Of a stretch of 64,000 nt of DNA, positions 47,449 to 64,000 are shown piece after piece; the stretch's first letter is position 1, and each line of letters starts with the position of its first letter. The notes beneath the pieces are model-generated. The model had not been told where the DNA came from. It searched no databases and worked only from the letters and a program-made list of their open reading frames with translations. The stretch is from positions 190,944 through 254,943 of the forward strand of contig CAWJDT010000005.1 in the NCBI GenBank assembly GCA_963841735.1, written 5' to 3'. The position numbers and the translations under genes are program-made. Origin of the DNA: an uncultured Actinomycetes bacterium. GTDB taxonomy: Bacteria; Actinomycetota; Thermoleophilia; RBG-16-64-13.

Positions 47449-48975
47449 CTACTCCAGAGGTATCCCCCACACCGATGACATGCCCACCCCGCCGCTCTCC
47501 GCGTTCTGCGAGAAGGTGGACGGATCGGAGTCGACGAGGGTGTAGCTCCCGGCGGGGACCACCAAGTCATCCAGCGTGACGGTCCAGTAGGCGTTAGCCA
47601 CATCGCCCTGGCCCGGGCTACCGACGGCCTGAAACGGTCCGTACATGGTGCCGTCCTCGGCCCGCAGGCCGATGGTGCCCACCCCGGGTAGTCCCCCCCA
47701 GATATAGTGGTAGGTCTGAAGCGTTGTGATCTTCGTGGTAACGTCCAGCACAAACGTGGGGAGGGTGGCGCCGGGACTCACTCCGCCGATGTTGCCGTTA
47801 CTGAAAAGCTCTTGAGGCTCCTGCGCAACGTCCTGGTCTCCGGTGGTCCCGACCGGCCGATCGAACTCCTCGCCCGTGTCGATGTCGACTACGACGAAGA
47901 TGTTGATGATCACCACAGTCGGCTGGACCACGACGATGGTGGCCGGATCGAAGTCGGGCCACTTGGTGCCTGTGTATTTGGGAGCTTTCGTGGCCAGTTT
48001 GGGCGGAGTCAACGGGTTCCCGCATTCACAGCGCACCCGGGGTACGCCGTATTGGTCGACCAGCACCATCTGCCCCTTCTGCAACACCGACTGGCGAGGG
48101 GTAGGCTTGCCGTCACGGAAGCCGTTGTTGGTGACCCTGGTGTCGCGGGTGAGCATCAGGGGGGTGAGCTCAGCGAAGTAGTCGCGGAGCTGAGAGGGCT
48201 GAATCTGGGTGCCGCCGCTCCACTTGAAGGTGGGATCGGCGTTGAGGGCGGCGCAGAAGGCCGCGGCCTTATCGGGGTTCTGTTCGAAGAACTCGAGCTG
48301 ACCTTCTTTGTCGGCCAGAGCCTTGTCTTTGGATCCGCCATACAGGGCCGGCTTGTCTCCGGAGACGGCAGCCACCTGCACAGTTCCCGGAGCGGTGGTG
48401 ACAGCTCCAATTGGCGGAGCTGTCGTAGCAACTCCAACCGGCAACGTGGTCGTCGGCGCGAGTGTGGTGGTGGGCAGGTTAAGCGACGGTGGAGGACCCG
48501 CCAGCACAAAGGACTCGCCGGTGAACGGCTCGGGTCCGGACTTGCCGGCCGCCTCCAAGAGAATCTCACCCTCTTGCTGCGCAGCGGTGGCGTCCGTGGT
48601 CGCATCCGTGGTTGCTTCGCCGGTGGCGGAGCCGGACGAGGACGACGTCACCGTGGTGTTGCCGGAGGCCGTCTTGTCCGAGTCATCACCGCGCAGACCG
48701 AAGTAAAGACCGACCCCCAATGCCGCCAGCAGTATGACCGCGGCCGCAACTATCCCAGCGATCAAGGGTCCGCGGCCCCGCCTGGCGGGCGCCGGCGACT
48801 GTGGGGGCTGCCAACCCGGGCCCCCCGGGCCGTATCCCCCCGTCATCATCGGGGGCGGCGGAGACGGCGGTGCCTGGGCGAAACCGGGAGGAGAGGGCTG
48901 CCAACCCGGAGCGCCACAGTGCACACAGAATGGCGCGCCCTCCGTCAAAGGCTGACCGCATTTCGTGCAAAGCAT
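47449..48975 (-). CDS. zinc-ribbon membrane protein with Pro-rich region, single TM and large extracytoplasmic domain
   Basis: Probable start MLCTKCGQPLTEGAPFCVHCGAP at 48975, 3 nt after AAGGAGGG. TM PLIAGIVAAAVILLAALGVGLYFGL; Thr-rich linker. Confidence 0.5.
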   Translation of the reverse strand: MLCTKCGQPLTEGAPFCVHCGAPGWQPSPPGFAQAPPSPPPPMMTGGYGPGGPGWQPPQSPAPARRGRGPLIAGIVAAAVILLAALGVGLYFGLRGDDSDKTASGNTTVTSSSSGSATGEATTDATTDATAAQQEGEILLEAAGKSGPEPFTGESFVLAGPPPSLNLPTTTLAPTTTLPVGVATTAPPIGAVTTAPGTVQVAAVSGDKPALYGGSKDKALADKEGQLEFFEQNPDKAAAFCAALNADPTFKWSGGTQIQPSQLRDYFAELTPLMLTRDTRVTNNGFRDGKPTPRQSVLQKGQMVLVDQYGVPRVRCECGNPLTPPKLATKAPKYTGTKWPDFDPATIVVVQPTVVIINIFVVVDIDTGEEFDRPVGTTGDQDVAQEPQELFSNGNIGGVSPGATLPTFVLDVTTKITTLQTYHYIWGGLPGVGTIGLRAEDGTMYGPFQAVGSPGQGDVANAYWTVTLDDLVVPAGSYTLVDSDPSTFSQNAESGGVGMSSVWGIPLE

Positions 48976-49041
48976 GATTCCCTCCTTGCGCCCGCTCCTC
49001 AGCGATACGCCCACTCCGGTGACTACATTGGCAAGCGTAGG

Positions 49042-49815
49042 CTAGTTGCCCGCAATAGTCCATAGTCTGATGGTTTCTTCCATCCAGCAGGCAGCCGCTT
49101 CCATCATGTTGCCCAGCTCTTCCTTCGGATAGGCGCCATCAGCACGCAGGGGCGGGGGATACATCGGCTCACCGAACACCTGCCTCATCCGCGGGCGATG
49201 CGTGCACTCCGAGCCGTTCCGGCGGTAGCGTTTGGTGAACACGTAGACCATCGGGAGGATGGGTGCCTGGTGGAGACAGGACATGTAGAAGGCACCTGGC
49301 TTGAAACGGTAGATCTCCTGGCTCAGGTAGACAAGATCGCCCTCGGGCAGGAAGAGCACGTGATGCCCGCGGCGCAGCGCCTCGCCCACCGGAGCCGTGA
49401 TCATCTTGAAACCCAAGGCTCTGGCCGGAATGGGAAACGCCCGCACCATGCGGAGTATGCGGCGGACAACCGGCACCTCGAAGTTCCGTTGCGCAACGGA
49501 GATGTAGAGTCTCCGCGGAAACACTGCCGCGCCTGCGAACACCGTGTCAAAGTAGTGGCAGTGGTTGGAGATGACAATACATGCCCTCTTCCGCAGAATG
49601 CGCTTGTTGGCGCGTCCGCTTACCCTTAGCCCAAAGTACACGCCGGCAAGCCCGGCAATGGGATAGAGCAGGAGCATGACCGGGAGCGTGAGAAGTGTGA
49701 ACCACCAGTCGAAGTAGATGTACTTGTACGGCTTGCGAAAATCGAGCTTCTTGGTGTCGTTGGTGACCACGAACAGCTTCTCTTGCGGAATGGTGTTCCG
49801 CTGCCTTTTCTCCAT
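49042..49815 (-). CDS. 1-acyl-sn-glycerol-3-phosphate acyltransferase (PlsC/LPLAT family)
   Basis: NHCHYFD (HX4D) and FLPEG acyltransferase motifs; N-terminal TM. Confidence 0.75.
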   Translation of the reverse strand: MEKRQRNTIPQEKLFVVTNDTKKLDFRKPYKYIYFDWWFTLLTLPVMLLLYPIAGLAGVYFGLRVSGRANKRILRKRACIVISNHCHYFDTVFAGAAVFPRRLYISVAQRNFEVPVVRRILRMVRAFPIPARALGFKMITAPVGEALRRGHHVLFLPEGDLVYLSQEIYRFKPGAFYMSCLHQAPILPMVYVFTKRYRRNGSECTHRPRMRQVFGEPMYPPPLRADGAYPKEELGNMMEAAACWMEETIRLWTIAGN

Positions 49816-49851
49816 GTTGTCGATTGGAAAGATAGAAGTCGGGCGACCCGG

Positions 49852-51006
49852 CTAGGCCATCTGCGGTTCTAGGGTCGGCTCACCGCTCAGGATCTCGCGC
49901 TCGAACTCCGCGTAGATATCCTCCATGAGGTCAAGACATCTCTCAAAGCGATACTGCTCGGCCATTTGCAGGACCTTTGCGCGGGAGGCGCGGAGCTCGT
50001 CCTTGTGCTCAAACCAATAGTCGATCTTCTTCGCAAGGTCGTCCTCGTCGTCCTTGCGGAACATGAACCGGTCGTCCAAGGCAAACTGCGGCGCGGCGCT
50101 ATAGCTGGAATCGCCTATGAGGCACGGAAGCCCACAACCGATGGCCTCAAGACACGAGAGACTCTCCAGCTCGACGATAGAACCGTGCACGTACATGTCG
50201 GCGGTGTTCAGGTACTGCAGCTTCTCTTCGTTGCTGACATAGCGGATGAGCGGCTTGTTGGGCAACTCGTCGCCGAGGCGCACAAGCTCGTCGGTCATCT
50301 CGCCCGTGCCACAGAGCATGAGAGTTATCTTGTCCGCGTACTTTGAGCGTCTGACGCCCCCGATGAGCAGCGACTGCCGCTTCTCAAGGGCATGGCGGCC
50401 GACGTTCATGAGCACCAGATTGTCGCCGTAGAAGTCCGGACGGTCGTATCTGCCGGCCGCGTACTCCCGGGGGATGCCGTTGGACACCACCCGCAGGGCG
50501 CTATTGCAGCCGTGGCCCCAGAGCATATCGGCAGCGAACTGCGAGGGACATTGTACTAGCGGCACACGATTGAAAAGCAGGAAGTTGAACAGCTTGTGCA
50601 CCGTCCACTCCAGGGACTTGCTCTCCTTGCCCATGGCCGAGATGATGTTCTGCGGCTGCACGTGGAACGCGCCCATGACGTTCTTGCCCATCTGCTTGGC
50701 GACCTTGGCCGCCCCGTACCCCAGATAGAACGGGAACTGGATCTGCACCAGGTCTACGTCGGCGAACGCCTTGCGCAGCACGTCTTTCTCGGGGACGCCG
50801 AACATGAAGTCCATCTTGTCCTGTGATTCCTTGGTGCCCGGCAGAAAGAACCCCTTGACCTTGTAGAACCGCTCTTCTTCAAGGGACTTGGTGGCGACAA
50901 TGGTGAACTTGTGCCCACGCTTCTTGAGACCTTCCACCAAGCGCATGGTGGCGATGGTGCCGCCATTGGCCCTGTTGAACGTGTCTACGACGACTGCTAT
51001 CTTCAT
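49852..51006 (-). CDS. glycosyltransferase family 4 (GT1_4-like; glycolipid synthase-like)
   Basis: Probable start MKIAVVVDTF at 51006 after GGAAGGA. C-terminal EX7E motif (ELESLSCLEAIGCGLP). Confidence 0.75.
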   Translation of the reverse strand: MKIAVVVDTFNRANGGTIATMRLVEGLKKRGHKFTIVATKSLEEERFYKVKGFFLPGTKESQDKMDFMFGVPEKDVLRKAFADVDLVQIQFPFYLGYGAAKVAKQMGKNVMGAFHVQPQNIISAMGKESKSLEWTVHKLFNFLLFNRVPLVQCPSQFAADMLWGHGCNSALRVVSNGIPREYAAGRYDRPDFYGDNLVLMNVGRHALEKRQSLLIGGVRRSKYADKITLMLCGTGEMTDELVRLGDELPNKPLIRYVSNEEKLQYLNTADMYVHGSIVELESLSCLEAIGCGLPCLIGDSSYSAAPQFALDDRFMFRKDDEDDLAKKIDYWFEHKDELRASRAKVLQMAEQYRFERCLDLMEDIYAEFEREILSGEPTLEPQMA

Positions 51007-51258
51007 TCGGGCGTCCTTCCACGTGCCTGTGCCACGAGCAGGGACCCACAACGACTCGCGACATTTAGCGAACACTTAATGTTCGGAGTTGCACATGCTA
51101 GCAGACGCGGCGGCGACCTGTCGAACGGCGCGGCCGTGTCTCACAAGCCCATCAAGATCACCGGCAGGCGAGGCAGCGCCGTACTTGGTGAGTGAGGACG
51201 ATTGGCGAGCGGTGCAGACGATCGGGCGCCTTGCGGAGCTCATCGCTCCAATACAAAC

Positions 51259-52116
51259 CTACCGCTTCGGCCAGACGATATTCCCGCTCCTGTCGATCAT
51301 GGCCTTGTATCCGTCTTCGTGACCAATGCTCACCAAGGCAAGCCCGTCCCTGAACGGCTCGGCCCAGGCGAGGTCCGGCTCGATGGCCCAGGCCCCGGTC
51401 CGGTCGATGAAGCCAAAGACCAGAACGCCGTCGTCGAATAGGCAACAGGCTGCAAGGCCCTCCGTGAACTCCTGAGCCGAGTTGAAACGCGGTTGCACGA
51501 CAACCACTCCTGTCGTATCCAGGTAACCGAACTGATCACCGATGCGGGCGGCCGCCAGGCCCTCGGAGAAGTCGAAGGCCTCATAGAACTGCGGCTGGAT
51601 GACCAGGGCCCCAAAGGTATCGACATAGCCCCACTTGCCCCCAACTCGCACCGCTGCGAGGCCGTCGTCTGTGAAGCTGCGGCCCTCGTCGTATCTCGGT
51701 TCGATCTTCCAGGCCCCGGTCTTGTCGATGTAGCCCCACCTGCCGGAAGCATCCGCCGCCGGACAGAGACCCTCCGAAAACGACCTCTCCATGAAGGCCG
51801 GCGCGTCGCCCGGCCGGATGACCCAGGCCCCGGTCTTGTCTACGAAGCCCACCGGGTACCCGTGCTCCTTCTCATCCAGCACTACACTGGCGACACCCTC
51901 GCTGAAATCCTCGGCACTGAGCAGGGTAGGCTCGATTGCCCAGTCGCTCTGTGGGTCGATGAACCCGCACGGGCCATCTCCCTTCTCCGGCGCCACACAC
52001 GCGAGTCCATCGGAAAACCAGGAGGCATAGGCGAACTGTGGCTCAATGGCCCACGCTCCCGTCCTGTCGATGTAGCCCCACTTGTCCCCTCCAACCAATA
52101 CCGGGTAGAGATGCAC
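51259..52116 (-). CDS. WG-repeat (KWG) containing protein; GTG start immediately follows an in-frame TAA that terminates a lipoprotein leader ORF
   Basis: At least six repeats of KWGY(I/V)D.(T/S)G.W.I.P.F. Same frame as the upstream ORF 52117..52338. Confidence 0.7.
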   Translation of the reverse strand: MHLYPVLVGGDKWGYIDRTGAWAIEPQFAYASWFSDGLACVAPEKGDGPCGFIDPQSDWAIEPTLLSAEDFSEGVASVVLDEKEHGYPVGFVDKTGAWVIRPGDAPAFMERSFSEGLCPAADASGRWGYIDKTGAWKIEPRYDEGRSFTDDGLAAVRVGGKWGYVDTFGALVIQPQFYEAFDFSEGLAAARIGDQFGYLDTTGVVVVQPRFNSAQEFTEGLAACCLFDDGVLVFGFIDRTGAWAIEPDLAWAEPFRDGLALVSIGHEDGYKAMIDRSGNIVWPKR

Positions 52117-52531: not shown

Positions 52532-54682
52532 CTAGACACGCAATAGCCCTTCTCCGACAAGGAACTCCGCCCCATTTCCCATTCCGTAGTCCAGAAGCTC
52601 GTCGCTGAAGGAGCCCTTGAGAGCGCAGAAGTACACCTGCGCGCCGATCCTCCTGGCCATCTCGACAATCCGCGTGGCTTGGTCGAGTTTGAGTGAATCG
52701 GCCGTCCGTTTACATTCTGCGACGAGTCGTTCTGGGCCGAAGCCGAAAAAGACGTCAAAGTCCACGGTTGGTGCGCCGGGCACCGTGACATCCAAGCCTG
52801 GCCAATAGGCCATTTGAAGAGCACTCCGGTCACGGGGCGTGAAACGGCGAACTGCCGCCAAGACTGGGAGCAAGTCGTTGTCCATCATTGTTTCAGCCAA
52901 ACCATCCAGCCTAAGGTAAGACTTGGCTTCTAGTCCGTCCCCTTGAAGCAGCGGCAGGGTGAATTCAGCCCGACAGGCAAGGCAACGCATGACGTCATCA
53001 AGATCAGAAATCGGATAGAACTCCTTTGCCCCGCATTCCTCGCACTGGTAGGTTCTCCCTCGCCTGACTAGACCTGTCGCCAAGAGTCTCTCTAGAAGCG
53101 GCGCGATGTCCGCTCTGGCGAAGCCAATTTGTGACGCGATGTCGTCCAGCGTCTTGGTATTGGGCCGAAGAAGGATCAACTCGTTCTTGACCGTGTCCTG
53201 GATAAACCGGTCAAAGCCTTCAGGCTCCTCGCACTTGGCGTCCTTGAGCGCTTTAGAGATGCTCGCCTCAACCTTGCGCCTGGCGAGAGAGGCGAGATTC
53301 TCGAAGATGGCGATGGCCAGGGTGTTGGTCAACACAGACAAGCCTTCAAGTCCTCCAACTCGGTCAATGACGGCCCGCGCAAACCTTCCTGGGGGAGTAA
53401 TCTCGGCGCTCAAACCTAGGTCCTGCATGTAAGCATTCAGGGCCTCATCCGGGTCTAAGACTCTCAGCTTGAGATCAAAAGAGCGACTCGGAGACTGAGT
53501 GCGAATGCAGAACCTCCCTTGGTAGGCGTAGCCGTTTTGCTGAATCTTGGCTGCAGCTGATCTCGTAACCGGGAAGGGATTCGGCCAGGTCACCTCCAAC
53601 ACGACGCTGTTGCTGTATTTAGCCGCAAAGCCTTTAGGTACCCCGAATCGCATGGTGTTTTCCCCACGCCGCAATGCAGCGAGATCGTCGGCAAACAGAC
53701 CGCGTCTGAGCTGCCCTCCCGGGAGATATCCCGCAAACGCGAATTCGAGCGCGCGCTGCTCGCTTGCTGCCGGTCCTCTAAGCTGTTCAGTCCGAGTTTC
53801 CTCTGGCACCTCAACCATTCCAGCGGCGACTAGCTCCTGTCTGGCGGAATCCCGAATAGAGGCCGCCGCGAATATGCGCACATCCGGCTTCTGGCGAAGC
53901 CGCGACTCCGCGGCAATCCACTTGACCATCTCCGCGACAACCGCCTGCTCCTTGAGAAAGCCGACCGGCATGATAATCAGTTGCTCACGGCTACCCCAGC
54001 TCACCACGCGGGAGCGATAGTTCCAGGCCGTGCACAGGTCATCAAAGCTGTCCGTCTGGACGACGTAGATGAATCTGTCATAAGCGGGAGAGACTTGCTC
54101 ATGTAGGTCGATCAGGCGGACTGATTGCGCGAGCGGCGAGACGCCAGAGGTTTGGCCGTCAAGCAGCGCGAGCTTCGCTGCCAATTCAGTTGGGGCCGCA
54201 CGCAAAGAGAAGGCTTCTTCATACGCTCCTCGATCTCCCGGATTCAGCGAGCCCCAGATGATGGTTTCGACATCTGGCAGAGGATCTTCATTGACGGAGG
54301 GAATAGTGAGCAGGTACTTCGAGGAAGAGTCTCCCGAGAGCCAGAGATTCAGCGGATGAAGATACCAGTCCGTTAGCTTCGGGTGAATCTGCTGGACATT
54401 GATTCGTGGAAACAGCTCTCGGATTGCTGCCGCCGAGAACGCAGAGTGATAGAAGACTGTCTCCACATCGCGAATCGCGGTATAGGCGCCAGTAGCGGGG
54501 TCCATTTCTGGCGTCCCCTCCGAGACCGGAATCACGAGAGCGTTCGCTCCGTTCCAGATTTCCGAGGCATTTCGGGCAACACTGGCTAGGGCCGAGATAT
54601 CTCCTCGCGGAATGACAAACCCCAGTTCGGGTCCCCGGAGGCCATACGAGATTCGCTGCTGTGATAGCTCACCTTGCCCCAT
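52532..54682 (-). CDS. large hypothetical protein (716 aa) with winged-helix-like segment, CxxC...CxxC zinc ribbon and C-terminal PD-(D/E)xK-like nuclease motif; candidate defence gene
   Basis: LDDIASQIGFARADIAPLLERLLATGLVRRG (wHTH-like); YQCEECGAKEF...RCLACRAEF (Zn ribbon); DFDVFFGFGPERLVAECKR (D...ExK). No P-loop. Reduced GC. Confidence 0.5.
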   Translation of the reverse strand: MGQGELSQQRISYGLRGPELGFVIPRGDISALASVARNASEIWNGANALVIPVSEGTPEMDPATGAYTAIRDVETVFYHSAFSAAAIRELFPRINVQQIHPKLTDWYLHPLNLWLSGDSSSKYLLTIPSVNEDPLPDVETIIWGSLNPGDRGAYEEAFSLRAAPTELAAKLALLDGQTSGVSPLAQSVRLIDLHEQVSPAYDRFIYVVQTDSFDDLCTAWNYRSRVVSWGSREQLIIMPVGFLKEQAVVAEMVKWIAAESRLRQKPDVRIFAAASIRDSARQELVAAGMVEVPEETRTEQLRGPAASEQRALEFAFAGYLPGGQLRRGLFADDLAALRRGENTMRFGVPKGFAAKYSNSVVLEVTWPNPFPVTRSAAAKIQQNGYAYQGRFCIRTQSPSRSFDLKLRVLDPDEALNAYMQDLGLSAEITPPGRFARAVIDRVGGLEGLSVLTNTLAIAIFENLASLARRKVEASISKALKDAKCEEPEGFDRFIQDTVKNELILLRPNTKTLDDIASQIGFARADIAPLLERLLATGLVRRGRTYQCEECGAKEFYPISDLDDVMRCLACRAEFTLPLLQGDGLEAKSYLRLDGLAETMMDNDLLPVLAAVRRFTPRDRSALQMAYWPGLDVTVPGAPTVDFDVFFGFGPERLVAECKRTADSLKLDQATRIVEMARRIGAQVYFCALKGSFSDELLDYGMGNGAEFLVGEGLLRV

Positions 54683-54801: not shown

Positions 54802-56004
54802 TCACCGGGAGGCGCGGAATCCAAAGGCTGTGTTGGTGCTGCCTGGCACACTGCCCAAATCAAGGTTAAGCACGCCCGCTTGGCCGCCATCGCTCCAACG
54901 GCCGCCACGCCGAAAACCACGTAATGATGCGTCGCTAACTGAGCTATACAGCTGGCCAACACCTTGGCTAGAGTTCCAAGTGTCTGAACCAGACAAGCCG
55001 ATACTTCTAGGGAGAGGATTTGCCGGCAAGGAGCCCGGCTCTGTCACGGCGGTCCATTGCTTCCAGGCGAAGGCGCCTTCTCCAGTAATGCCCGGCTGGC
55101 CGCCGGTCGTCTGGCCAGCTGTCCATTCCGAGACATTACCTGCAAAGTCCCAGATTACTTCTCCGTTCGTGAGAGTGAGCGTACGGCTCTGGTTGCCGCT
55201 AGCGCTTCCAGTGCCGTAGTAGCCGTTAGAGTCGTTTGAATCGGCTGCCAGGGCGTTTGTCGGATCATTGTCATTGTGTCCCGAGTAGATATAGCCGGAG
55301 CCGACGCTCCCGCCGCTCCAGTTGCTGGCGACGGCCAAGACGTTCTGGGCGACTGTCATCCATTCGGCTTCGGTAATCAGGTGGCAGCCGTCGCAACCGA
55401 CAACATTGGAGCTGTAAGCAGCGGCATTGGTCTGGTTGATGCTGACCCAGGGTGCGCCGGAGGCTTGTGAAACGGGGACGGTGCCTCCGGCGTTCTTGGC
55501 TTCATACTTCATGAGGCAGAAGTCATTGGTGCCGTACGTGCCACTGCCAGGAACCGGTATGAAACCGGAAGGACAGGCCGAGCCAACCGATGAGCCGCTG
55601 CCGGTGGTGGCTATGGCCGGGGCGGTCATGTCGGTAACGGAGTAGCTGGCAGTGCCGTTGGTACTGGTCAAGTGGAAGGTCTTGCCGGCTATCTGGCTGT
55701 AGACCAGCGTGTTGCCCAAGCTGGTCTTCAGGCAGTAGTTGGCATCTACAGTGGGCGCGGTTGGGCAGTTGCTGCCGTCCAGCGACGTGGGGTAGGAACC
55801 ATAGAGCGTGTTGTAGTTCTTGAGCAGGGTTGAGGCATTGGCCAGGTCAGACTGCAGAGAGCTGACCTTGGCCCTATTGGATATACCTGAATAGGAAACG
55901 ATGGTTATGGCGGCCAGGATGCCGATGACGACAATGACAACCAGAAGCTCGACGATGGTGAAAGCAGGACGTCTGGTTGGAAACAGCTTATCTATAATAC
56001 GCAT
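54802..56004 (-). CDS. prepilin-type N-terminal methylation/cleavage motif protein with C-terminal FGE-sulfatase (SUMF1/DUF323)-like domain
   Basis: N-terminus RRPAFTIVELLVVIVVIGILAAI is a class-III signal / pseudopilin helix. C-terminus ...LRGFRRGGRWSDGG...TAFGFRASR resembles the FGE-sulfatase domain end (RGGSW...GFRcar). GC ~50%. Confidence 0.55.
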   Translation of the reverse strand: MRIIDKLFPTRRPAFTIVELLVVIVVIGILAAITIVSYSGISNRAKVSSLQSDLANASTLLKNYNTLYGSYPTSLDGSNCPTAPTVDANYCLKTSLGNTLVYSQIAGKTFHLTSTNGTASYSVTDMTAPAIATTGSGSSVGSACPSGFIPVPGSGTYGTNDFCLMKYEAKNAGGTVPVSQASGAPWVSINQTNAAAYSSNVVGCDGCHLITEAEWMTVAQNVLAVASNWSGGSVGSGYIYSGHNDNDPTNALAADSNDSNGYYGTGSASGNQSRTLTLTNGEVIWDFAGNVSEWTAGQTTGGQPGITGEGAFAWKQWTAVTEPGSLPANPLPRSIGLSGSDTWNSSQGVGQLYSSVSDASLRGFRRGGRWSDGGQAGVLNLDLGSVPGSTNTAFGFRASR

Positions 56005-56122: not shown

Positions 56123-57370
56123 ATGACAGACAATCAAAACAACCCTCCCTACCAGTCGGCCCTCGATATTCCATCGATTGCGAAAATGGCCGACGAGCTG
56201 CAGACTGCCGGAAGGCTGACGCGTGTGTTCGGGCGAAAGCATCGCGCGGAGATCTTGAAGATCGAGGCCCAGCTGCATCGGCTCGTTGGGATCGTCGATC
56301 GCTTCTATGCCCTGTTGGGGCCTCGTCACTGGATCTTTCACGACCGGTTGAATGTCGAACAAATCGCGGACCTACTCGACCTGCCGGTGGACGAGGCCGA
56401 GCGCAGACTAATTGAGCTGTACATGGAGCCCGAATCTCTCCGATTCGCGATTCTCGGACTGAACCATTTCCCAGCCATGCGATTACGCATGCATCTGTTG
56501 GAACGAGCCGAGAAGGATTACCACGAGAAGCGCTACTACTCGACCGTCCTCGTGCTGCTGGCCGTCATGGATGGATTCGTGAACGATTTCGAGAACCAGC
56601 ATCGAGGTCTGCACACGCGGTCCGAGGAGGAAATGAGCGCATGGGATAGTGTCGTCGGGCATCACCTCGGCCTAACGAATGCTCACAGGACCTTCACGAA
56701 GAGCACATCAAAGACGAGCGATGAAGAGGTCTTCGATCTCTATCGGAATGGCATCGTCCACGGCACTATCGTGAACTTCGACAATGACGTCGTGGCAACC
56801 AAGGCGTGGAACCGGCTTTTTGCCGTCTGTGACTGGGCAACTAGCGAGGAACGCCGCCGAGTCGAGCCCGAAGCAGAGCCGACTTGGCGAGAGCTATTTG
56901 CACAGATGGCCGAGAACCAGAAAGCCAGAAAAGCGCTAGATGAGTGGAAGCCGTCGGTGCTGGAGGCTGGAGCGCCCGGACTGGAATCCAACGAGGTCTT
57001 TGTTAGGGCGAATGAGTACCTCTCCCTCTGGAAGCGGGGCAACTACGGCCGCATGGCTCCGTTCCTGTCCAAGCTCGTCGCGGAAGACTCGGACAAAGCC
57101 ACTGCCGGGATGATTCGCACGGAGTACAGCACCTTCCCGCTGACGGCGTTCACCATCACTGCAGTCAGGCATGACGTGCCGGCAATCTGTGAGGTCGAAG
57201 CGGAGCTGGAGTTCGGTCCTGAGCGCAAGAGTGCGCGCATGCAGTGGAACCGAGAGGGCGACGACTGGGTGCCGGTATCACCAAACCAGCCAGGTGAGTG
57301 GCGACTGGTGCGTTGGGGTCCTCTCGCCATGATGCAGCCCGAACCAGCTGGCGAGGACGAGACGAGCTAG
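56123..57370 (+). CDS. hypothetical protein (415 aa), the only plus-strand gene in the island
   Basis: Clean ORF with moderate GC and no recognisable motifs. Its stop overlaps the convergent OLD-family gene by 4 nt. Confidence 0.45.
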   Translation: MTDNQNNPPYQSALDIPSIAKMADELQTAGRLTRVFGRKHRAEILKIEAQLHRLVGIVDRFYALLGPRHWIFHDRLNVEQIADLLDLPVDEAERRLIELYMEPESLRFAILGLNHFPAMRLRMHLLERAEKDYHEKRYYSTVLVLLAVMDGFVNDFENQHRGLHTRSEEEMSAWDSVVGHHLGLTNAHRTFTKSTSKTSDEEVFDLYRNGIVHGTIVNFDNDVVATKAWNRLFAVCDWATSEERRRVEPEAEPTWRELFAQMAENQKARKALDEWKPSVLEAGAPGLESNEVFVRANEYLSLWKRGNYGRMAPFLSKLVAEDSDKATAGMIRTEYSTFPLTAFTITAVRHDVPAICEVEAELEFGPERKSARMQWNREGDDWVPVSPNQPGEWRLVRWGPLAMMQPEPAGEDETS

Positions 57371-59256
57371 TCCAATACTCTGACGTGCTCCAGCGTGATT
57401 GACAGACAGTCGGGTATCTTGCCACCGGCAAGCAAGCAGGCATCGTGGTATGTCCAAGCATCCTTGCCAGCGAATCCAAGCCCTTGTGATACGAGTTCGT
57501 CCCTAGCCGCAACCCACTCCGGCCAGGAATCGTGAACTAGCGCCTCCAAGGTCGGCTCATTGAAGAATAGACGATCGGCCACCTTCCCTGAGGGCCAGTC
57601 GATTTCGCTGCAGCCGAAGAACTTCAGCAGTTTGCGGTTCCAGGACTTGGTGTTTTCTATACTCGACTCCAGGTCTTTTTCGCGCTTGGAGTCAGCTGCG
57701 GCCTTTGCTTCAGCCAGCTTATCCTCAAGTTGTCGATCGTTGTCCACGACAACTACTGCGGGTACTCCCAGCCGCTCCAAGATTACGAATGGCAGGAGCA
57801 CGCCCGTCTTACCTCCGCATTCTGCGACGCACACTCCGTTGCTGACCAAGCTCTGCACTAGCTCCGAAGCACCATTGAACATGCCTCTGTCCGTCGAGCC
57901 CTCTACAAGAAGAACCCTATCAGCGAACAGCGCCTCGGCTAGAGAGCCCATGCACACGCCATCGAGCTGGCGCTTGACGCTTGGTTCATCCACGTAGCAA
58001 TCTAGGCGCGCTAGCACCTTGTCCACGGAAGATCCCGAAACTGACACCGCGCCTTGACTGCCGCCGCCTGAACGGCTGACCCGCCTGATCTGATGAAAGG
58101 CCCGGGGTTCTATGAAATATGGGCTATGAGTTGCGTATGCGACTTGCACGCCCTGGTCAGGGTTCTTCGCTAGATCACGCAGGACCGACGCAAAGTTGCG
58201 AGCCTGCAGGGGATGCTGAAAGAGTTCGGGCTCCTCAATTGCGAGGCAGATCGTGCCTTGCTCTCCCTTGCCCTTTCCGCGCTCAGCCAGCAGCTGAAGA
58301 GCTGAGATCAACAGGGCGCGCTGGAAACCGTGTCCCTGTCTTTCCACGGTTGTCTCAGTGTCGTCGTCCATGATCTTGACTTTGAACTGCGCCTTTTGCT
58401 GCGGAATTGCTAGGTCCTGCGCGCTGACCTGAACTTCGCGCCCTGAAGTGAAGGCGGACACGGCCGAGGTCATCCTCTCGGAAAGCTCCTTGAGCTGCTC
58501 TCCAAAATGCTTACCGTGGATGTCTGCCTGCTCAGCAGCCACCTTAGCCATCAACTCGGCAAGGTCGGCGTCCGCGCCAGACCGATCGACCGCTTGTTCG
58601 AGGACGCGGCCGATTATGGCATTTCGGTTGTCTTGTGCTTGTTCGCTCGCGCGCAGGTCGGCGGTTACAAAGACGTAGTCGAAAAGACCCGTCATTACAA
58701 ATTGGCCGTTGAAACCGAACAGGTGAGTGGTCGATGAGATATCAACATCTTCTAGCTTATCGGGGTTGTCTGCTTCCCACTGATCCAGCGCGGTCAGCCG
58801 CCCGGCATCGTTCCGAACCGATGGAAGCCCGAGGTCGGGGCGAGCAACTCTTAACTCGTCATATCGCTCCCCACGTTCGGTTGCGTTAATCCCCTCACGA
58901 ACACTCGCGAACTCCGGCCGGGCTCTGCCCTTTCCATAGAGCTTATCTTTGCCGTCTTGCCAATGCTTCCAGAGGGTTACAGCGTCTCTCCCTGGTACGG
59001 CATAGCGACCTAGTGCTTCCCGATCCTTGTCTGTCAACCCAGCGAACTCGACTGACACTTCAATTTGCTTTTCTTCCGCTCCCGAGAAGACATCGTCCTC
59101 GGTAATAGTGCCGCCATTGAAGAACCAATCAAGAGCTCGCAGAATGGTAGATTTCCCGACTCCATTCGGCCCGATGAAAGTCGTTACATCGTCGAAGTCG
59201 ACAGCGACGTCGTCTAGGCAGCGGAAACCGACGATGTGAACCTTCTTGATTCGCAT
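57367..59256 (-). CDS. OLD-family ATP-dependent endonuclease (N-terminal ABC-type ATPase + C-terminal Toprim), class-1 single-gene type
   Basis: MRIKKVHIVGFRCLDDVAVDFDDVTTFIGPNGVGKSTILRALDWFFNG is the characteristic AAA_15/OLD N-terminus with Walker A. C-terminal Toprim with VLLVEGSTD and VVVVDNDRQ. Confidence 0.8.
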   Translation of the reverse strand: MRIKKVHIVGFRCLDDVAVDFDDVTTFIGPNGVGKSTILRALDWFFNGGTITEDDVFSGAEEKQIEVSVEFAGLTDKDREALGRYAVPGRDAVTLWKHWQDGKDKLYGKGRARPEFASVREGINATERGERYDELRVARPDLGLPSVRNDAGRLTALDQWEADNPDKLEDVDISSTTHLFGFNGQFVMTGLFDYVFVTADLRASEQAQDNRNAIIGRVLEQAVDRSGADADLAELMAKVAAEQADIHGKHFGEQLKELSERMTSAVSAFTSGREVQVSAQDLAIPQQKAQFKVKIMDDDTETTVERQGHGFQRALLISALQLLAERGKGKGEQGTICLAIEEPELFQHPLQARNFASVLRDLAKNPDQGVQVAYATHSPYFIEPRAFHQIRRVSRSGGGSQGAVSVSGSSVDKVLARLDCYVDEPSVKRQLDGVCMGSLAEALFADRVLLVEGSTDRGMFNGASELVQSLVSNGVCVAECGGKTGVLLPFVILERLGVPAVVVVDNDRQLEDKLAEAKAAADSKREKDLESSIENTKSWNRKLLKFFGCSEIDWPSGKVADRLFFNEPTLEALVHDSWPEWVAARDELVSQGLGFAGKDAWTYHDACLLAGGKIPDCLSITLEHVRVLD

Positions 59257-59421: not shown

Positions 59422-60303
59422 TCACCGTTTTGGAAACAGCCCGCCAAAGAGGAGTCCGAGATACAAGAACGCCATGTCCTCATCGTCGTCCCTGTACGCG
59501 TCAAGAGCCTTCCTGGCCCTGCCCGCCGCCGTCTTGAGCTTCGACAGAGCCTCTGAATGCTTGGCTTCACTTGAACAGGGGTGGATTCTTCCGCAGGCAC
59601 CCTTGGGGTCGTTCATGGCAGCGAGTTCATGGCCTTCGAGACTCTCAAGGATCAGGCACAGGTCAAAGACGTGGATATAGAGAGACTGCTTCGCTACGTG
59701 CTGCGCAGCGCGCATCTCCAGATAGAACGAGGAAATCGGGACGTTTAAGTAGTACTTCCACGCTTTAAGCAGTCGCGCGAGACCCTTTGCATCGCCCTTG
59801 TGCGGCTTTTCATTACATTCATTCACGTAGGCAAGGTGCTCATAAGGCGCGGAATCAATCCAGCCGCTTCCAACGCTGGGGCCTGGGATGTCGTACACCA
59901 ACTGACCGGGGCCACCTCTACCCGTGAGGAAGGCGGGGATGACTTCCCACGTCTCAGCTCCTCCAGCGAATCTCACAGCTACCGCCGGTCGGCGAATCGT
60001 GACCTCGGTCGAGGGGAATCTCTTCGAAAGCGCATCCTTCACCCACTCAAGAGCTGTGTACGACGATTCCGGCTTCGAGTCCTTCAGCCGCACCACGGCA
60101 TCGACATCGCTATAGAACCGAATGCCTGTTCCGTGCGAGAAGGAGCCAGTCTCGAAGAAGTTGGCGACGCTTAGATTGTCTTCAAGAGCGGCCTTGACCG
60201 ATGCACGGTGGGATGCGGCAGCGCTGCGCTCCGTTGCCGTAGGAGTCAGCCCGGATAGGAAGTCTTCAAAAGCCTGGCTCACAGTCCGCGCCATACGATT
60301 CAC
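59422..60303 (-). CDS. CD-NTase / SMODS-like nucleotidyltransferase (copy A)
   Basis: Motifs TGSFSHGTGIRFYSDVDAVV (GS...[DE]h[DE] pol-beta-type NTase core) and later WIDSAPYEH; N-terminal helix MARTVSQAFEDFLSGL typical of SMODS/CD-NTase proteins. ~290 aa. Confidence 0.6.
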   Translation of the reverse strand: MNRMARTVSQAFEDFLSGLTPTATERSAAASHRASVKAALEDNLSVANFFETGSFSHGTGIRFYSDVDAVVRLKDSKPESSYTALEWVKDALSKRFPSTEVTIRRPAVAVRFAGGAETWEVIPAFLTGRGGPGQLVYDIPGPSVGSGWIDSAPYEHLAYVNECNEKPHKGDAKGLARLLKAWKYYLNVPISSFYLEMRAAQHVAKQSLYIHVFDLCLILESLEGHELAAMNDPKGACGRIHPCSSEAKHSEALSKLKTAAGRARKALDAYRDDDEDMAFLYLGLLFGGLFPKR

Positions 60304-61182
60304 CTATCCATATGCTGGAAAATCATCGCCAAGTATGATTCCCCATAGCCTTATGGCTTCTTCATGATCTCCGTCTCGCTGCGCCTCGATTGCATCTGAG
60401 GCCCGGCCGTGAGTTGAAGAAAAAGACTGCTTCAGGTCTGATTCTTGGAGGGGAGTGAGGCTCGCCCCAAGATCGCCGCCATAGCCGTCCGGGTCCTGAA
60501 CGTGGATGTAGCCCCCGGCCCATTCGAAGAACTTCTGAAGTCCTATCGCATGGTTACTACTCATGGTTGAAAACGCAGCCCCGACCATTGCCTCAAGGTG
60601 CCATGAGCCGAGCCGCTTGCTGTGTTCGTTGTTCCATCGCTTAAGAATTCGCACCCGTCGTCTGAACTGGCCAGACAAGGCCGTATCGCGGTCCTGAGCC
60701 CACTGCTCCTGCTTTGGCGGGTCCGTCTTTATCCAGGAACCGTCACCAGCCGGCAGGAAATAGCCTCCACTATTCACGCCGAAGACCGGCGCGATATCGA
60801 CGTGTAATCCGTCTTTGTAGAAGAGCCTGACTGCTTGGCCTCGTGCTCCAACTTGTTGCACTTCAGTGCGGGCGTCTATCCTGCGTGTAACCCAGTAAAG
60901 GAAGCTTTGAGAGTCGTGCCGGTACTTCTCGAAGACCTGATTCTTGTTAGTAAAGACAGCCAGAACGTCTATGTCATCGAGCGGACGAATCATCGTTCCT
61001 CGTGCCCCGGACCCCATCAACCGACTGGTCTTGAGTGGTACGTCGCAGTCAGCGGGGAATGACTCATCCAGCAGTTCCTTGACCCGAGCCGCTCGACTGA
61101 CCATCGTCACTCGCTGCGCCTCGGTCAAGACGATCGCAGCTGCGAATTCCTTGAAGGCTTGCTCAACCGTCCTGGCCATCGC
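60304..61182 (-). CDS. CD-NTase / SMODS-like nucleotidyltransferase (copy B, paralog)
   Basis: MARTVEQAFKEFAAAI...MGSGARGTMIRPLDDIDVLAVF; same architecture as copy A. Start at MARTV (61182), 20-nt overlap with the upstream 4TM gene. The stop abuts the start of copy A. Confidence 0.6.
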   Translation of the reverse strand, partial: AMARTVEQAFKEFAAAIVLTEAQRVTMVSRAARVKELLDESFPADCDVPLKTSRLMGSGARGTMIRPLDDIDVLAVFTNKNQVFEKYRHDSQSFLYWVTRRIDARTEVQQVGARGQAVRLFYKDGLHVDIAPVFGVNSGGYFLPAGDGSWIKTDPPKQEQWAQDRDTALSGQFRRRVRILKRWNNEHSKRLGSWHLEAMVGAAFSTMSSNHAIGLQKFFEWAGGYIHVQDPDGYGGDLGASLTPLQESDLKQSFSSTHGRASDAIEAQRDGDHEEAIRLWGIILGDDFPAYG

Positions 61183-62068
61183 TTGCCCCCGGCCCGATGT
61201 TTCTCGCCGCATACTGCATGTCTTCTTCGAAAGAAGGAACAAGTGCCTTGTAGAACCATTCTGGAACTAGCGGAGCAATCTTGCGCAGCCGGAATATTCC
61301 GTCCTGCAGCTCCCTCAACGGTTGCACCTCGCCAGGGAGGTGGGAGAGAAGGCTATCAACCTCATCCTCCAACAACTGGCGACTACCAGCAGCCTGAAAA
61401 TGCTCGCGCGCTAGTTCGCAAGCGTCCAGCAACGCTGGCAGCGAGGGCAACGCGATGGTTGTAAGGTAAGCCGCCAGGGTCGCGTTGCCAGTCAAAGCAA
61501 GTGCAACACCGGCTAAGAACCAGAGCACCGCCGCGCCTGCCAGCACCCACGCGTAGGCGTAGTGCTGTCTGCGAGCCCATACTGCATTGGATCTCAGGCA
61601 GATGAGGACCGAATCGGGCCAAGCGTGCGCTGCCTGCGTTGGATACCAATCGCGTACGGAGGCAAAGGGCGCCTCTCCCTTGCTCGCGTTCCGTATCTCC
61701 TCTGCGGGAATTGGCTTGCCAAGGACTGGGTTCCATGGCAACCCGAGGACATCGCAGTCGAACATCTCTTGCGCGAGCGCGCCTTTGATCCGACATCGGT
61801 CACGCCATGGACTAATCAGAACCCGGGAGACGAAGATCCAAACTCCGGCGAGGGCTCCGAGAAGCGGCCCGTAGGTCGGAGCGATAAAGAAGATCAACGG
61901 CGCGACTAGCGCAAGCAAGAGTGCCACTGAACGTCCCGCAAGTTGCATCCGTTTTGCTCGTCCGTAGTAGCAGCCCGCCGCAGTTTGGCGACGGAGGTTA
62001 GCTTCGCTCCTCTGTCTGCATCCGATGTCGGCCATGGTCGGACGACGTTCCACAAAACGATGAGTCAT
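61163..62068 (-). CDS. four-transmembrane-helix protein (S-4TM-like; candidate membrane effector)
   Basis: TM1 SVALLLALVAPLIFFIAP, TM2 GPLLGALAGVWIFVSRVLI, TM3 YAWVLAGAAVLWFLAGVALAL, TM4 TLAAYLTTIALPSLPALL. Its ATG overlaps the methyltransferase TGA (ATGA). Confidence 0.55.
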   Translation of the reverse strand: MTHRFVERRPTMADIGCRQRSEANLRRQTAAGCYYGRAKRMQLAGRSVALLLALVAPLIFFIAPTYGPLLGALAGVWIFVSRVLISPWRDRCRIKGALAQEMFDCDVLGLPWNPVLGKPIPAEEIRNASKGEAPFASVRDWYPTQAAHAWPDSVLICLRSNAVWARRQHYAYAWVLAGAAVLWFLAGVALALTGNATLAAYLTTIALPSLPALLDACELAREHFQAAGSRQLLEDEVDSLLSHLPGEVQPLRELQDGIFRLRKIAPLVPEWFYKALVPSFEEDMQYAARNIGPGASDGQDG

Positions 62069-64000
62069 GCAGTCTTCTTCCGCTCACCGTTTGAGTGCCA
62101 GGCGAAGCCGCTGAGGTCGCGAACGGAACCGATTGTTGTGAGCAGCTGCGCGTTAGCAATGACCCGCTCGTCGTTCAGCGACAGCTTGATTCCGGCTTCG
62201 CTCATCCGCCGTATCTTCGACGCTGCTGAGCCAAGAGCATCCGACCTGGCGGCCGGGCGCGTTCCTTCATCCTTCCGGCAGACGACTATGGCGTCAATCT
62301 GAATGGGGCTCTTCGCCTGCGACTTCGGAGTCGCCCCGGACATCTCGGACTTGACGGGATGAGCATTGACGACGACGAAGCCGGATTCGACCACGGCCCT
62401 CGCTACGGAGTCCCATCCTTCGTCTCGCGAATGATGGTAGGTGAAAACCAGGAGCCCCGAAGGCTTCAAGACACGATGGCACTCGCGAAAGACGGAGGCC
62501 AGCTTATGGCTAAACAATGTCGCTTGCGCGTCTTGGACTTCCCCGGCGGAACGAGTGCTGCCGGATTCCTTGACGAAGCCTCGCGGAGTCAGTTGTTGCC
62601 AGGCATAGAAGAAATCGGCGAGTTCGGAATAGTGCACGTTATCGAAGAAGGGCGGATCGGTCACGACGAGGTCAATACTGCTGGCAGGAAAGCCGGTTTC
62701 GCTGGAATCGCCGCACGAAAGATAGATCGCTCGTCCGCTCCTGTCGCCGTTAAGGGGAGTGTCCATGTGGACTTGTCCAGCAAAGGCCGCCGAACACTGC
62801 ACTGCCTGGCCACTGCTAGAACCAACGATCTCCAAGGGATTGCGCCGGTAACTGATCGCTTTCAGCAGACGACCAGCGAACAAGCCCGAAAAGCTTCCGG
62901 AACTCTTCGAGGTTCCCCATATGTTGGCCTCAATTGGTGTTCGTTCCGGCTTCAAGATGTGATGAGAGAACATATGTCGGACTGCGCCGGTGCCTTCGCC
63001 CTTGTATGAGGCGAACATGTTGTTGAATTCGAGAGCGCCGGAGAACAAGAGCAACAGGGCATCTCTCGATTCGGTGTCTTTCACTTCGGAAATGGCCCGA
63101 TGCAGCTTCGCGAGTCCCAGCAGTTGCCGATCGTTGTGGAAGTCTCGCCAGCGCTTGAACCCGTAACTAATGGCCTGACGGGTATTGTTGCCATCCGCGA
63201 GTTCCAACGAGGGAACGGATAGAGCACCTTGCTCCAATTCTCGCTTCAGCTCGCTGGAGCATTCCTCGTAGCGCGCCAGATCCTGCGCGTTTGCGGCCAA
63301 GTACTCCTTGCGTCCCTCCCGCGTCAGGACGAGCTTGGCATACAAGCGAAACGACGACGGAGCCTCCCCAGATAGCGTGTCAAGCACTCGAAAGTCGTTG
63401 CGGCAAGAAGGGCAAGTGGCCGAGCGACCGTTCACAACGCCAACGTCCTGGTTGAAGTCGTGTCCGCAGCGATCGCAAGTCGCGTCCGGCTGATCGTATC
63501 TGCCCTCAAAGATTTGGTCGCATTTCGGGCAAAGCACTTGGACTTCTGGCTTTCGACGCGGATAGGCGTTCCGCGCAAATACCCAAGAGGAAAAGAGATC
63601 AACAGTGCTTCGACAGGTTGGACAGCCGGCCTGCATCACCCAGAAGTAGTAGAGAACCTCGCACTGTTCGCCCCTGCTGTCTTCCGAGGCGTACATAGCG
63701 CGAAGCTCTTCACCAACAGAGGCTGAGAGCGAATCAAAGGCTCTTCGCAGCTTGATTTCGTCCAGCCCACCCAATGCCACTCGCACTGCCTCAGCCGCCA
63801 CCGGGTTGATGTCGCGACCTACTGCGGTGAGCCCGAGCTTGTGAGCTTCTCCGATTGTAGTTCCAGACCCCATGAAAGGGTCAAAGGCAGTAACGCCTGC
63901 GTAGTCTTGCCTGCGATAGAACTCGCTCCGCAAGTCGCTATCGGCCGGAAGGAGGCAGCCGAGAAGGATTCCCCGGAACACGGAACCGAGCCTTTTCGCC
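62065..64000 (-). CDS. DNA methyltransferase (N6-adenine/N4-cytosine class) with inserted multi-CxxC zinc-ribbon region; 5' end lies beyond the window
   Basis: AdoMet motif I DPFMGSGTTIGEAHKLGLTAVGRDINP; catalytic motif IV DLVVTDPPFFDNV; four CxxC pairs between them (CPTC...CPKC...CDRC...CPSC). No stop upstream before position 64000. Confidence 0.7.
   Translation of the reverse strand, partial: AKRLGSVFRGILLGCLLPADSDLRSEFYRRQDYAGVTAFDPFMGSGTTIGEAHKLGLTAVGRDINPVAAEAVRVALGGLDEIKLRRAFDSLSASVGEELRAMYASEDSRGEQCEVLYYFWVMQAGCPTCRSTVDLFSSWVFARNAYPRRKPEVQVLCPKCDQIFEGRYDQPDATCDRCGHDFNQDVGVVNGRSATCPSCRNDFRVLDTLSGEAPSSFRLYAKLVLTREGRKEYLAANAQDLARYEECSSELKRELEQGALSVPSLELADGNNTRQAISYGFKRWRDFHNDRQLLGLAKLHRAISEVKDTESRDALLLLFSGALEFNNMFASYKGEGTGAVRHMFSHHILKPERTPIEANIWGTSKSSGSFSGLFAGRLLKAISYRRNPLEIVGSSSGQAVQCSAAFAGQVHMDTPLNGDRSGRAIYLSCGDSSETGFPASSIDLVVTDPPFFDNVHYSELADFFYAWQQLTPRGFVKESGSTRSAGEVQDAQATLFSHKLASVFRECHRVLKPSGLLVFTYHHSRDEGWDSVARAVVESGFVVVNAHPVKSEMSGATPKSQAKSPIQIDAIVVCRKDEGTRPAARSDALGSAASKIRRMSEAGIKLSLNDERVIANAQLLTTIGSVRDLSGFAWHSNGERKKTA

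Follow-up and report, generated by a model that had tools for sequence, protein, structure and literature searches.

The closest described relatives of the gene analysed here are Card1, Can2, VC1899 (DUF1887) and Cdn1 (PDB 6wxw, 8q3y, 8bao, 7bdv, 1xmx and 9u49), which are CARF-domain nucleases ancillary to type III clustered regularly interspaced short palindromic repeats (CRISPR) systems. The gene itself lies on the minus strand of a 64,000-nucleotide (nt) stretch of contig CAWJDT010000005.1 from an uncultured Actinomycetes bacterium (the whole of this stretch is hereafter the window) and encodes a protein of 716 amino acids (aa), of which the C-terminal 130 residues are predicted, from conservation and a structure model, to form a PD-(D/E)xK nuclease that is of the same type as Card1, Can2 and Hjc and has its catalytic residues intact. 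We tentatively favour reading this gene as an autonomous single-polypeptide sensor-nuclease of defence islands, and hold that reading to be nearly an even call.

Card1, Can2, VC1899 and Cdn1 are the best Foldseek matches of the protein and have in common with it the D...ECK register, a Rossmann-like region ahead of the nuclease and, apparently, the PD-(D/E)xK subtype. Unlike Card1 and Can2, it has no detectable CARF domain, is twice the size, and adds two alpha/beta lobes, a beta-rich domain, a helical linker, a winged helix-turn-helix (wHTH) and a zinc ribbon before the nuclease; moreover, its family shows no association with type III CRISPR or with any cyclase. Mrr, a type IV restriction enzyme made of a winged helix and Mrr_cat, likewise joins a wHTH to a following restriction-fold nuclease in one polypeptide and is a lone gene beside restriction-modification (R-M) systems in defence islands; however, our protein gives no Mrr_cat or Mrr_N hidden Markov model (HMM) match, and it has a zinc ribbon and a conserved 430-residue N-terminal module that are absent from Mrr. 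Cap4, the SAVED-nuclease effector of the cyclic-oligonucleotide-based anti-phage signalling system (CBASS), is also a single chain combining a two-lobed sensor with a PD-(D/E)xK nuclease, and the gene under study lies near a CBASS in the window; in Cap4, though, the nuclease comes first in the chain and SAVED last, and its gene is part of the CBASS operon itself, whereas the family has no SAVED match and no cyclase linked to it across its members. Shedu SduA (DUF4263) is comparable as a single-gene defence protein in which a sensing or regulatory N-terminal region precedes a PD-(D/E)xK nuclease at the C-terminus, but no PADLOC Shedu or DUF4263 match was found in the query or in 41 family members, and the present protein is set apart by its wHTH, its zinc ribbon and an N-terminal module that is conserved rather than variable. 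Finally, the archaeal Holliday-junction resolvase Hjc has the same minimal nuclease core and D...E-x-K register, but is a stand-alone housekeeping resolvase of 120-140 aa that lacks accessory domains. For the CARF nucleases, the Cap4-like CBASS effectors and Shedu, a defining domain or association was looked for and not found, and we would not place the protein in any of these groups; nor would we at present count it as an Mrr, given the missing Mrr_cat and Mrr_N matches, although it has the order of wHTH and then nuclease. In its workings it appears most like Card1/Can2 or Mrr.

Domain order and the predicted nuclease

The 716-aa open reading frame (ORF), proposed in an earlier note made from the sequence of the window, is real, with an ATG start and an AGGAGG upstream of it. 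Nothing in Pfam, NCBIfam or PADLOC matched the protein above threshold; its only weak HMM matches in these collections were to wHTH and zinc-ribbon models at residues 503-575. No Walker A motif was found in it, in agreement with the earlier statement that it has no P-loop. The gene and the parts of its product are as follows:

52532-54682, minus strand: complete ORF, 716 aa plus stop, ATG start; member of an unnamed family of proteins of ~700-830 aa
54692-54697, minus strand: AGGAGG ribosome-binding site, 9 nt upstream of the ATG at 54682, read from the sequence
54083-54670, minus strand: N-terminal alpha/beta (Rossmann-like) lobe 1, aa ~5-200, from the secondary-structure order of the AlphaFold2 model and conservation
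53753-54082, minus strand: alpha/beta lobe 2, aa ~201-310, from the AlphaFold2 model and conservation
53393-53752, minus strand: beta-rich domain 3, aa ~311-430, from the AlphaFold2 model and conservation
53225-53392, minus strand: helical linker, aa ~431-486, from the AlphaFold2 model and conservation
53045-53224, minus strand: wHTH, aa ~487-546, from sub-threshold HMM matches, a family-profile PDB match and the model
52958-53044, minus strand: zinc ribbon C547xxC550-X16-C567xxC570, aa 547-575, from Cys conservation and weak Zn_ribbon HMM matches
52535-52930, minus strand: predicted C-terminal PD-(D/E)xK nuclease domain, Card1/Can2/Hjc type, aa ~585-716, from the model, Foldseek, weak HMM matches and motif register
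52709-52756, minus strand: catalytic motif D643 ... E656-C-K658, with acidic D641 two residues ahead of D643, from conservation

An AlphaFold2 model built on the alignment of 41 family sequences reached a predicted local distance difference test (pLDDT) score of 89.5 and a predicted template modelling (pTM) score of 0.85, and therefore indicates one compact multidomain body; the model built on the single sequence was unusable (pLDDT 36). Its elements follow one another as two Rossmann-like lobes, the beta-rich domain, the helical linker, the wHTH, the zinc ribbon and an alpha-beta-beta-beta-alpha-beta nuclease domain, so that the restriction-endonuclease fold that had been proposed for the C-terminus is present both in the model and in its Foldseek matches. 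The nuclease elements (pLDDT ~95) are helix 594-614, strands 625-633, 640-648 and 651-660, helix 666-679 and strand 682-689, with D643 within strand 640-648, and both E656 and K658 within strand 651-660. When the whole model was compared with the PDB, the first 15 places were all taken by VC1899 (E 8.9e-6), Cdn1 (described in PMC12825302), Card1 or Can2, at E 9e-6 to 1e-3, followed by Ecl18kI, EndoMS and EcoRII; the target-normalised template modelling (TM) scores of 0.26-0.37 are those expected from superposing the nuclease domain alone. In the viral structure search, a model of an Mrr-type restriction endonuclease matched weakly (E 0.03). A profile of the nuclease domain by itself gave weak sequence matches in the PDB (E 0.18-0.8), which place xDxLL...ECK of the family in register with D...ECK of Cdn1 and of two Can2 structures and with D...EVK of Hjc. 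Weak nuclease HMM matches also appeared in individual members, to Card1_endonuc (E 0.007, 1 member), Hjc, NERD and YraN, and PADLOC CARF_PDDEXK was reached below threshold in 4 members (best E 8e-5).

Conservation was read from 41 full-length sequences for invariant columns and from 150 representatives for counts. The invariant columns are W43, G45, G144, Q177, W220, R223, P349, P371, C547, C550, C567, C570, G629, D643, E656 and K658; among the representatives, the catalytic residues are kept in 132/132 (D643), 129/130 (E656) and 128/130 (K658), and position 641 is D or E in 130/132. The stretch DFDVFF...ERLVAECK, which the earlier note had singled out for its restriction-endonuclease spacing, is thus present, with a conserved triad and a predicted fold; the D...ExK spacing, by itself, is not above chance, as it occurs in 53% of shuffles of the protein, and the motif therefore carries weight because of the conservation in the family and the predicted fold, not because of the pattern. 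Since the fold and the motif were both found, we assign the protein to the PD-(D/E)xK superfamily, and from sequence and model together it is very likely to be active as a nuclease and to bind nucleic acid.

Immediately before the nuclease, the wHTH is modelled as three helices (487-505, 512-519 and 523-536) and then a beta wing (539-546), and the zinc ribbon starts directly after the wing strand. The HTH-like stretch that had been noted ahead of the ribbon is supported by these helices and wing and by sub-threshold HMM matches to TrmB, Sta1 and Lrs14 at aa 503-565 of the query, with sub-threshold HTH_20, MarR_2 and IclR matches in other family members; several independent sub-threshold HTH and Zn-ribbon matches thus coincide in position between the query and other members. 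With the family profile, the wHTH had as its best PDB sequence match the Z-alpha (Z-DNA/Z-RNA-binding) domain of ADAR1 (E 0.006), a likeness that probably holds for wHTH domains in general; the viral structure search also gave a weak match to a phage 'Z DNA-binding protein'. The same PDB search with the single protein sequence gave noise only (e.g. Hsm3 and Doa1). The ribbon proposed in the earlier note was borne out, with a spacer of 16 residues rather than 17: its four Cys are kept in 131-133 of the 134-135 representatives covering them (>=97%), and the pattern CxxC-X16-CxxC (C547-E-E-C550 ... C567-L-A-C570) arises in 3/20000 shuffles. As they stand directly before the nuclease, the wHTH and four-Cys ribbon would be suited to keeping nucleic acid, and DNA most likely, in place at the active site.

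The N-terminal ~480 aa had been described as lacking any recognisable domain, and this still holds for sequence models: no HMM matched residues 1-480 in the query or in the 41 members, so that none of these proteins had a CARF HMM match there, and none had a SAVED match. Likewise, the top 50 Foldseek matches of the whole model included no CARF-only protein (Csm6, Csx1, Csa3 or ring nucleases) and no SAVED protein, though a very remote kinship with CARF may exist. The region is conserved, with W43 and G45 each kept in 96/96 representatives, W220 in 113/113, R223 in 114/114, N221 in 103/113, H109 in 95/104 and Q177 in 104/109. Lobe 1 holds the near-invariant R16, D28, W43, G45, H109, G144, Q177 and S182; lobe 2 has invariant W220 and R223 and near-invariant N221 at the end of an FWNxRxR helix; the beta-rich domain conserves G328, P349, P371 and A377; and the linker conserves G432, R433 and K470. 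Because they are kept at ~20% overall identity, the nuclease motif and the polar and aromatic N-terminal residues are under strong purifying selection. Lobes 1 and 2 share a helix-WN-strand motif (hhalign E 0.0097, probability 4%, 19 columns); this profile match between the lobes is marginal, and we do not claim an internal duplication. A likeness of the HPL and SPL motifs to the 'HPSPL' loop of uracil-DNA glycosylases was also set aside, as the order of the motifs does not fit and no such fold is among the top 50 Foldseek matches.

The family and its genomic settings

The protein is not the orphan for which it had been taken. An exhaustive HMMER scan of 1.84 billion cluster representatives, in which each relative stands for a cluster at 50% identity, yielded 591 relatives at E<=1e-3 (221 of them at <=1e-10 and 53 at <=1e-30); many of the relatives align end to end at 22-34% identity and are ~700-830 aa long. 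A word-index homology search, whether with the single sequence or with the 41-sequence profile, returned the query alone, and this empty result cannot be read as orphan status given the 591 relatives found exhaustively. Pfam, NCBIfam and PADLOC contain no model that reaches threshold on the family, and our literature search on the family and its domain combination found no paper describing the architecture. The family is therefore widespread in bacteria and unnamed by curated models, and it combines the fold of an already known superfamily with an undescribed N-terminal module.

When the 12 closest family sequences were used to search genome and metagenome collections, the loci recovered came mostly from metagenome-assembled genomes (MAGs) of Solirubrobacterales, with one Gemmatimonadales MAG and one labelled Actinomycetes; the distribution is patchy and the neighbourhoods highly variable. 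A distant full-length homologue, WP_046380425.1 (hhalign probability 99.8%), is carried on plasmid pRLLBG43 of Rhodococcus erythropolis BG43, where the Prokaryotic Genome Annotation Pipeline (PGAP) labels it 'hypothetical protein'; this Rhodococcus copy adjoins an HTH-PIN pair, integrases and an IS3 element. Viral contigs, phage genomes and a viral structure library held no family relatives, from which we conclude that the gene is not phage-borne.

To describe these settings, ORFs were called and clustered in 32 loci, and Pfam and PADLOC matches were recorded within three genes of the family gene in 20 non-redundant loci. The family gene is the sole cluster common to all 32 loci, and the next commonest cluster occurs in 6 (its one scanned member, the upstream gene in locus L005, matches Phage_integrase below threshold, E 5e-5); with no neighbour conserved across the 32 loci, the view of the gene as a single-protein unit was upheld. 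The co-directional upstream genes are mutually unrelated; among them are unknowns, genes for an AAA_23 protein and an integrase, and one for a protein with a nucleotidyl cyclase domain. Within three genes we found four integrases, Xre-type HTH proteins, ABC-3C components, ApeA-HEPN, HicA, Hypoth_Ymh, Lamassu LmuA, LmuB and LmuC, type II and type III methyltransferases, AbiEi, PDC-S58 and mad3. Elsewhere, on an element that bears an integrase, an MmeI-like fusion R-M gene and the family gene overlap by 4 nt; an Eco57I-type methyltransferase and XhoI lie 66 nt upstream of one family gene, which has RadC and a PhdYeFM-PIN pair downstream; an Mrr_cat gene lies 17 nt downstream of the family gene in two loci (L001 and L002); and other annotated contigs carry HsdM, integrases and, in one case, KAP NTPase with TatD and Peptidase_M78. 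No cas gene was found in any annotated neighbourhood. Homologues are thus mostly found among anti-phage and mobile-element genes and not in metabolic operons, the pattern that the earlier note had expected of a defence gene.

Several loci deserve mention in their own right. On two unrelated contigs (L047:87-5050 and L048:7517-12274), the family gene directly follows an R-M gene on the same strand, and may be co-transcribed with these R-M systems. In L006:9974-13327, a transposase gene of the IS630 family cuts the family gene into pieces of 484 aa and 248 aa; the other split MAG copies (L007, L011 and L035) may reflect long-read frameshift error rather than decay. A SMODS gene lies within 10 kb in 2/32 loci, among them a SMODS homologue at L028:1079-1951, ~8 kb from the family gene, and a class III adenylate/guanylate cyclase-domain gene at L009:8810-9781 stands directly upstream of an apparently split family member; the cyclases in L009 and L028 are isolated cases that bear on the hypothesis of a signal receptor.

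In the window, the gene lies in a stretch of lower GC content (0.57-0.58 vs. 0.61-0.63 in the 6 kb on its low-coordinate side) that also carries an OLD-family nuclease and a CBASS operon with methyltransferase-like, S_4TM and two SMODS genes. The neighbouring features are:

59422-64000, minus strand: apparent four-gene CBASS-type operon
61163-62068, minus strand: S_4TM effector of the CBASS
60304-61242 and 59422-60303, minus strand: tandem SMODS cyclases, with best matches to different PADLOC cyclase models
57367-59256, minus strand: OLD-family ATPase-TOPRIM nuclease (PADLOC Old, E 1e-56)
56123-57370, plus strand: 415-aa ORF, convergent with the OLD gene with a 4-nt overlap; no Pfam or PADLOC match
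54802-56004, minus strand: 400-aa protein resembling a prepilin and a formylglycine-generating enzyme (FGE), with a prepilin N-terminal methylation motif (E 6e-5) and a sub-threshold FGE-sulfatase match (E 0.0015)
51259-52116, minus strand: WG_beta_rep protein
47449-49014, minus strand: Zn-ribbon and DUF6777 protein

The CBASS has an unusual layout, with two cyclases, one 4TM effector and a methyltransferase-like gene; the last, a large N6_N4 methyltransferase-like gene, runs off the end of the window and encodes 704 aa on a sister contig. Its cyclases are 4.7 kb from the gene under study, beyond three other genes, one of which is on the opposite strand. No GajB-like or other partner of the OLD gene was evident in the window, and that gene looks stand-alone. 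The prepilin/FGE-like gene lies 119 nt upstream of our gene, and the earlier note had suggested that the two products work together; no homologue of this 400-aa neighbour was found beside any other family member, and we rejected the partnership. Partnerships with the OLD gene, the 415-aa ORF or the CBASS were likewise rejected at the family level, as none of them recurs, bar one distant SMODS gene. On the other side, the minus-strand genes at 47449-52116 (WG_beta_rep, GT4 glycosyltransferase, acyltransferase, and Zn-ribbon with DUF6777) are cell-envelope-like and probably mark the edge of the defence island. No rRNA or tRNA gene was found in the window.

Competing readings of the protein's function

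We reasoned that the protein, the gene for which is carried in defence islands and on integrative elements and plasmids, would work alone, without a conserved partner, with the N-terminal module acting as an allosteric sensor of a chemically conserved ligand (a nucleotide-like small molecule or an infection-linked nucleic-acid feature) the binding of which would release the nuclease, leading to degradation of invader DNA, host DNA or both. The plan of a sensor at the N-terminus and a nuclease at the C-terminus would be that of Card1/Can2, with a sensor other than CARF. The module is taken as a sensor because W43, G45, H109, Q177, W220, N221 and R223 are invariant or nearly so at 18-30% overall identity, and, as there is no dedicated signal synthase, the cue would come from the infection itself. 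Genomic context makes a defence function, anti-phage or anti-mobile-element, the probable one. The weakest step is the gating of the nuclease by a small ligand through the N-terminal module, which we regard as possible but doubtful, and which is suggested by conservation and by analogy.

Other observations also weigh against an autonomous sensor-nuclease of defence islands. The association with such islands is descriptive, and ordinary genes (Mur ligase, LysR and AMP-binding) also occur within three genes in the 20 loci, while one homologue has a housekeeping setting beside ClpB and MnmE/GidA. No significant match to any validated defence protein was found, and PADLOC returned nothing for the window protein. 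As for the sensor, no known ligand-binding family was detected for the N-terminal module, and the whole-model Foldseek matches to two-lobed binding proteins (GluA2, histidinol dehydrogenase, GlmS and a sugar-binding protein) are weak, at E 5e-3 to 0.2 and probability 0.1-0.6; these matches show only a tandem of Rossmann-like lobes.

The main rival is that the protein is a type IV-like restriction enzyme with an Mrr-like C-terminal half, in which the N-terminal module would read DNA directly (a modified base, or an unusual structure or end) with no small-molecule signal. A wHTH followed by PD-(D/E)xK is indeed the Mrr arrangement, the structural matches include a viral Mrr-type restriction endonuclease, Ecl18kI, EcoRII and EndoMS, the family lacks a conserved partner that would generate a signal, and the invariant tryptophans could make a base-stacking pocket. 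However, no Mrr_cat, SRA, EVE, YTH or other modified-base reader was found in the protein by HMM or among the top 50 structural matches, and the closest nuclease relatives are of the Card1/Can2 type, which is ligand-gated; DNA-specificity domains in arms races usually vary, whereas this N-terminal module is strongly conserved. The repeated adjacency to R-M genes (MmeI-like, XhoI/Eco57I, HsdM, Mrr_cat, and type II and type III methyltransferases) would favour a restriction enzyme, but is expected by chance because R-M systems are the commonest members of defence islands. On balance, we consider direct reading of DNA somewhat unlikely. A more specific form of signal gating, that the N-terminal 430 aa are a new receptor class with no detectable relation to CARF or SAVED, which activates a Card1-type nuclease on binding an alarm molecule derived from a nucleotide, is unlikely in our judgement; the alarm molecule would be made by phage or host, possibly as a CBASS-type product acting in trans, and the receptor would consist of two related lobes, the first helix of each ending in an invariant Trp (W43-x-G45; W220-N-x-R223), and then the beta-rich domain.

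The protein could instead be a cyclic-oligonucleotide-activated effector, that is, a nuclease with a highly diverged CARF- or SAVED-like receptor that is used in trans by the CBASS of the window or by another cyclase. The best relatives of its nuclease domain (VC1899, Cdn1, Card1 and Can2) are CARF nucleases activated by cyclic tetra-adenylate, in both a Rossmann-like sensor precedes the nuclease in the chain, and the tandem lobes with their common helix-WN-strand motif recall the pseudo-dimeric SAVED and Can1; in addition, the two-SMODS CBASS is 4.7 kb off and cyclases are near the gene in L028 and L009. Set against this are the lack of any CARF or SAVED match by HMM and of CARF-only or SAVED proteins in the Foldseek top 50, the presence of cyclases near the gene in only 3 of ~40 loci, with no cas gene seen, and the fact that the window CBASS owns a 4TM effector and is separated from our gene by the OLD, convergent and pilin-like genes, which together make such an effector decidedly unlikely. 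More improbable still is a housekeeping or mobile-element nuclease, either a structure-specific enzyme of repair or recombination, as Hjc and NucS are, or a function in the maintenance of integrative elements or in addiction to them: weak Hjc and YraN matches, the EndoMS structural match, the integrases, insertion sequence (IS) elements and plasmid locations, and the homologue between ClpB and housekeeping genes would all fit, but the distribution is patchy, the neighbourhoods vary, no phage-encoded copy and no conserved link to repair or recombination genes was found, and the gene is not bound to one type of element. Lastly, the wHTH and zinc ribbon, together with the fact that every HTH match is to a transcription-factor family, might suggest a DNA-binding regulator with a degenerate, inactive nuclease-like domain; we judge this highly improbable, as 128-132 of 130-132 representatives retain D643, E656 and K658 at an overall identity of ~20%, which would be unexpected for an inactivated site.

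Meaning for the family

We regard the family as a good candidate for a new defence system that consists of one gene. If the reading as an autonomous sensor-nuclease is true, it would be a widespread single-gene immune nuclease that current annotation resources leave unnamed, with at least 591 clusters at 50% identity, mostly from soil Actinomycetota, and a profile made from the full-length family alignment would let defence-annotation pipelines detect it. The plasmid copy in the cultivable R. erythropolis BG43 offers a direct experimental route. Were the N-terminal region a new receptor class for an alarm molecule, the proteins would form a new family of signal-gated abortive-infection effectors, again widespread in soil Actinomycetota. 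For the sensor-nuclease that we favour, a Card1/Can2-type nuclease would be in use outside CRISPR signalling, and the trigger of its conserved sensor module, which is unlike the described readers of ligands or DNA, could reveal a new route by which infection is detected.

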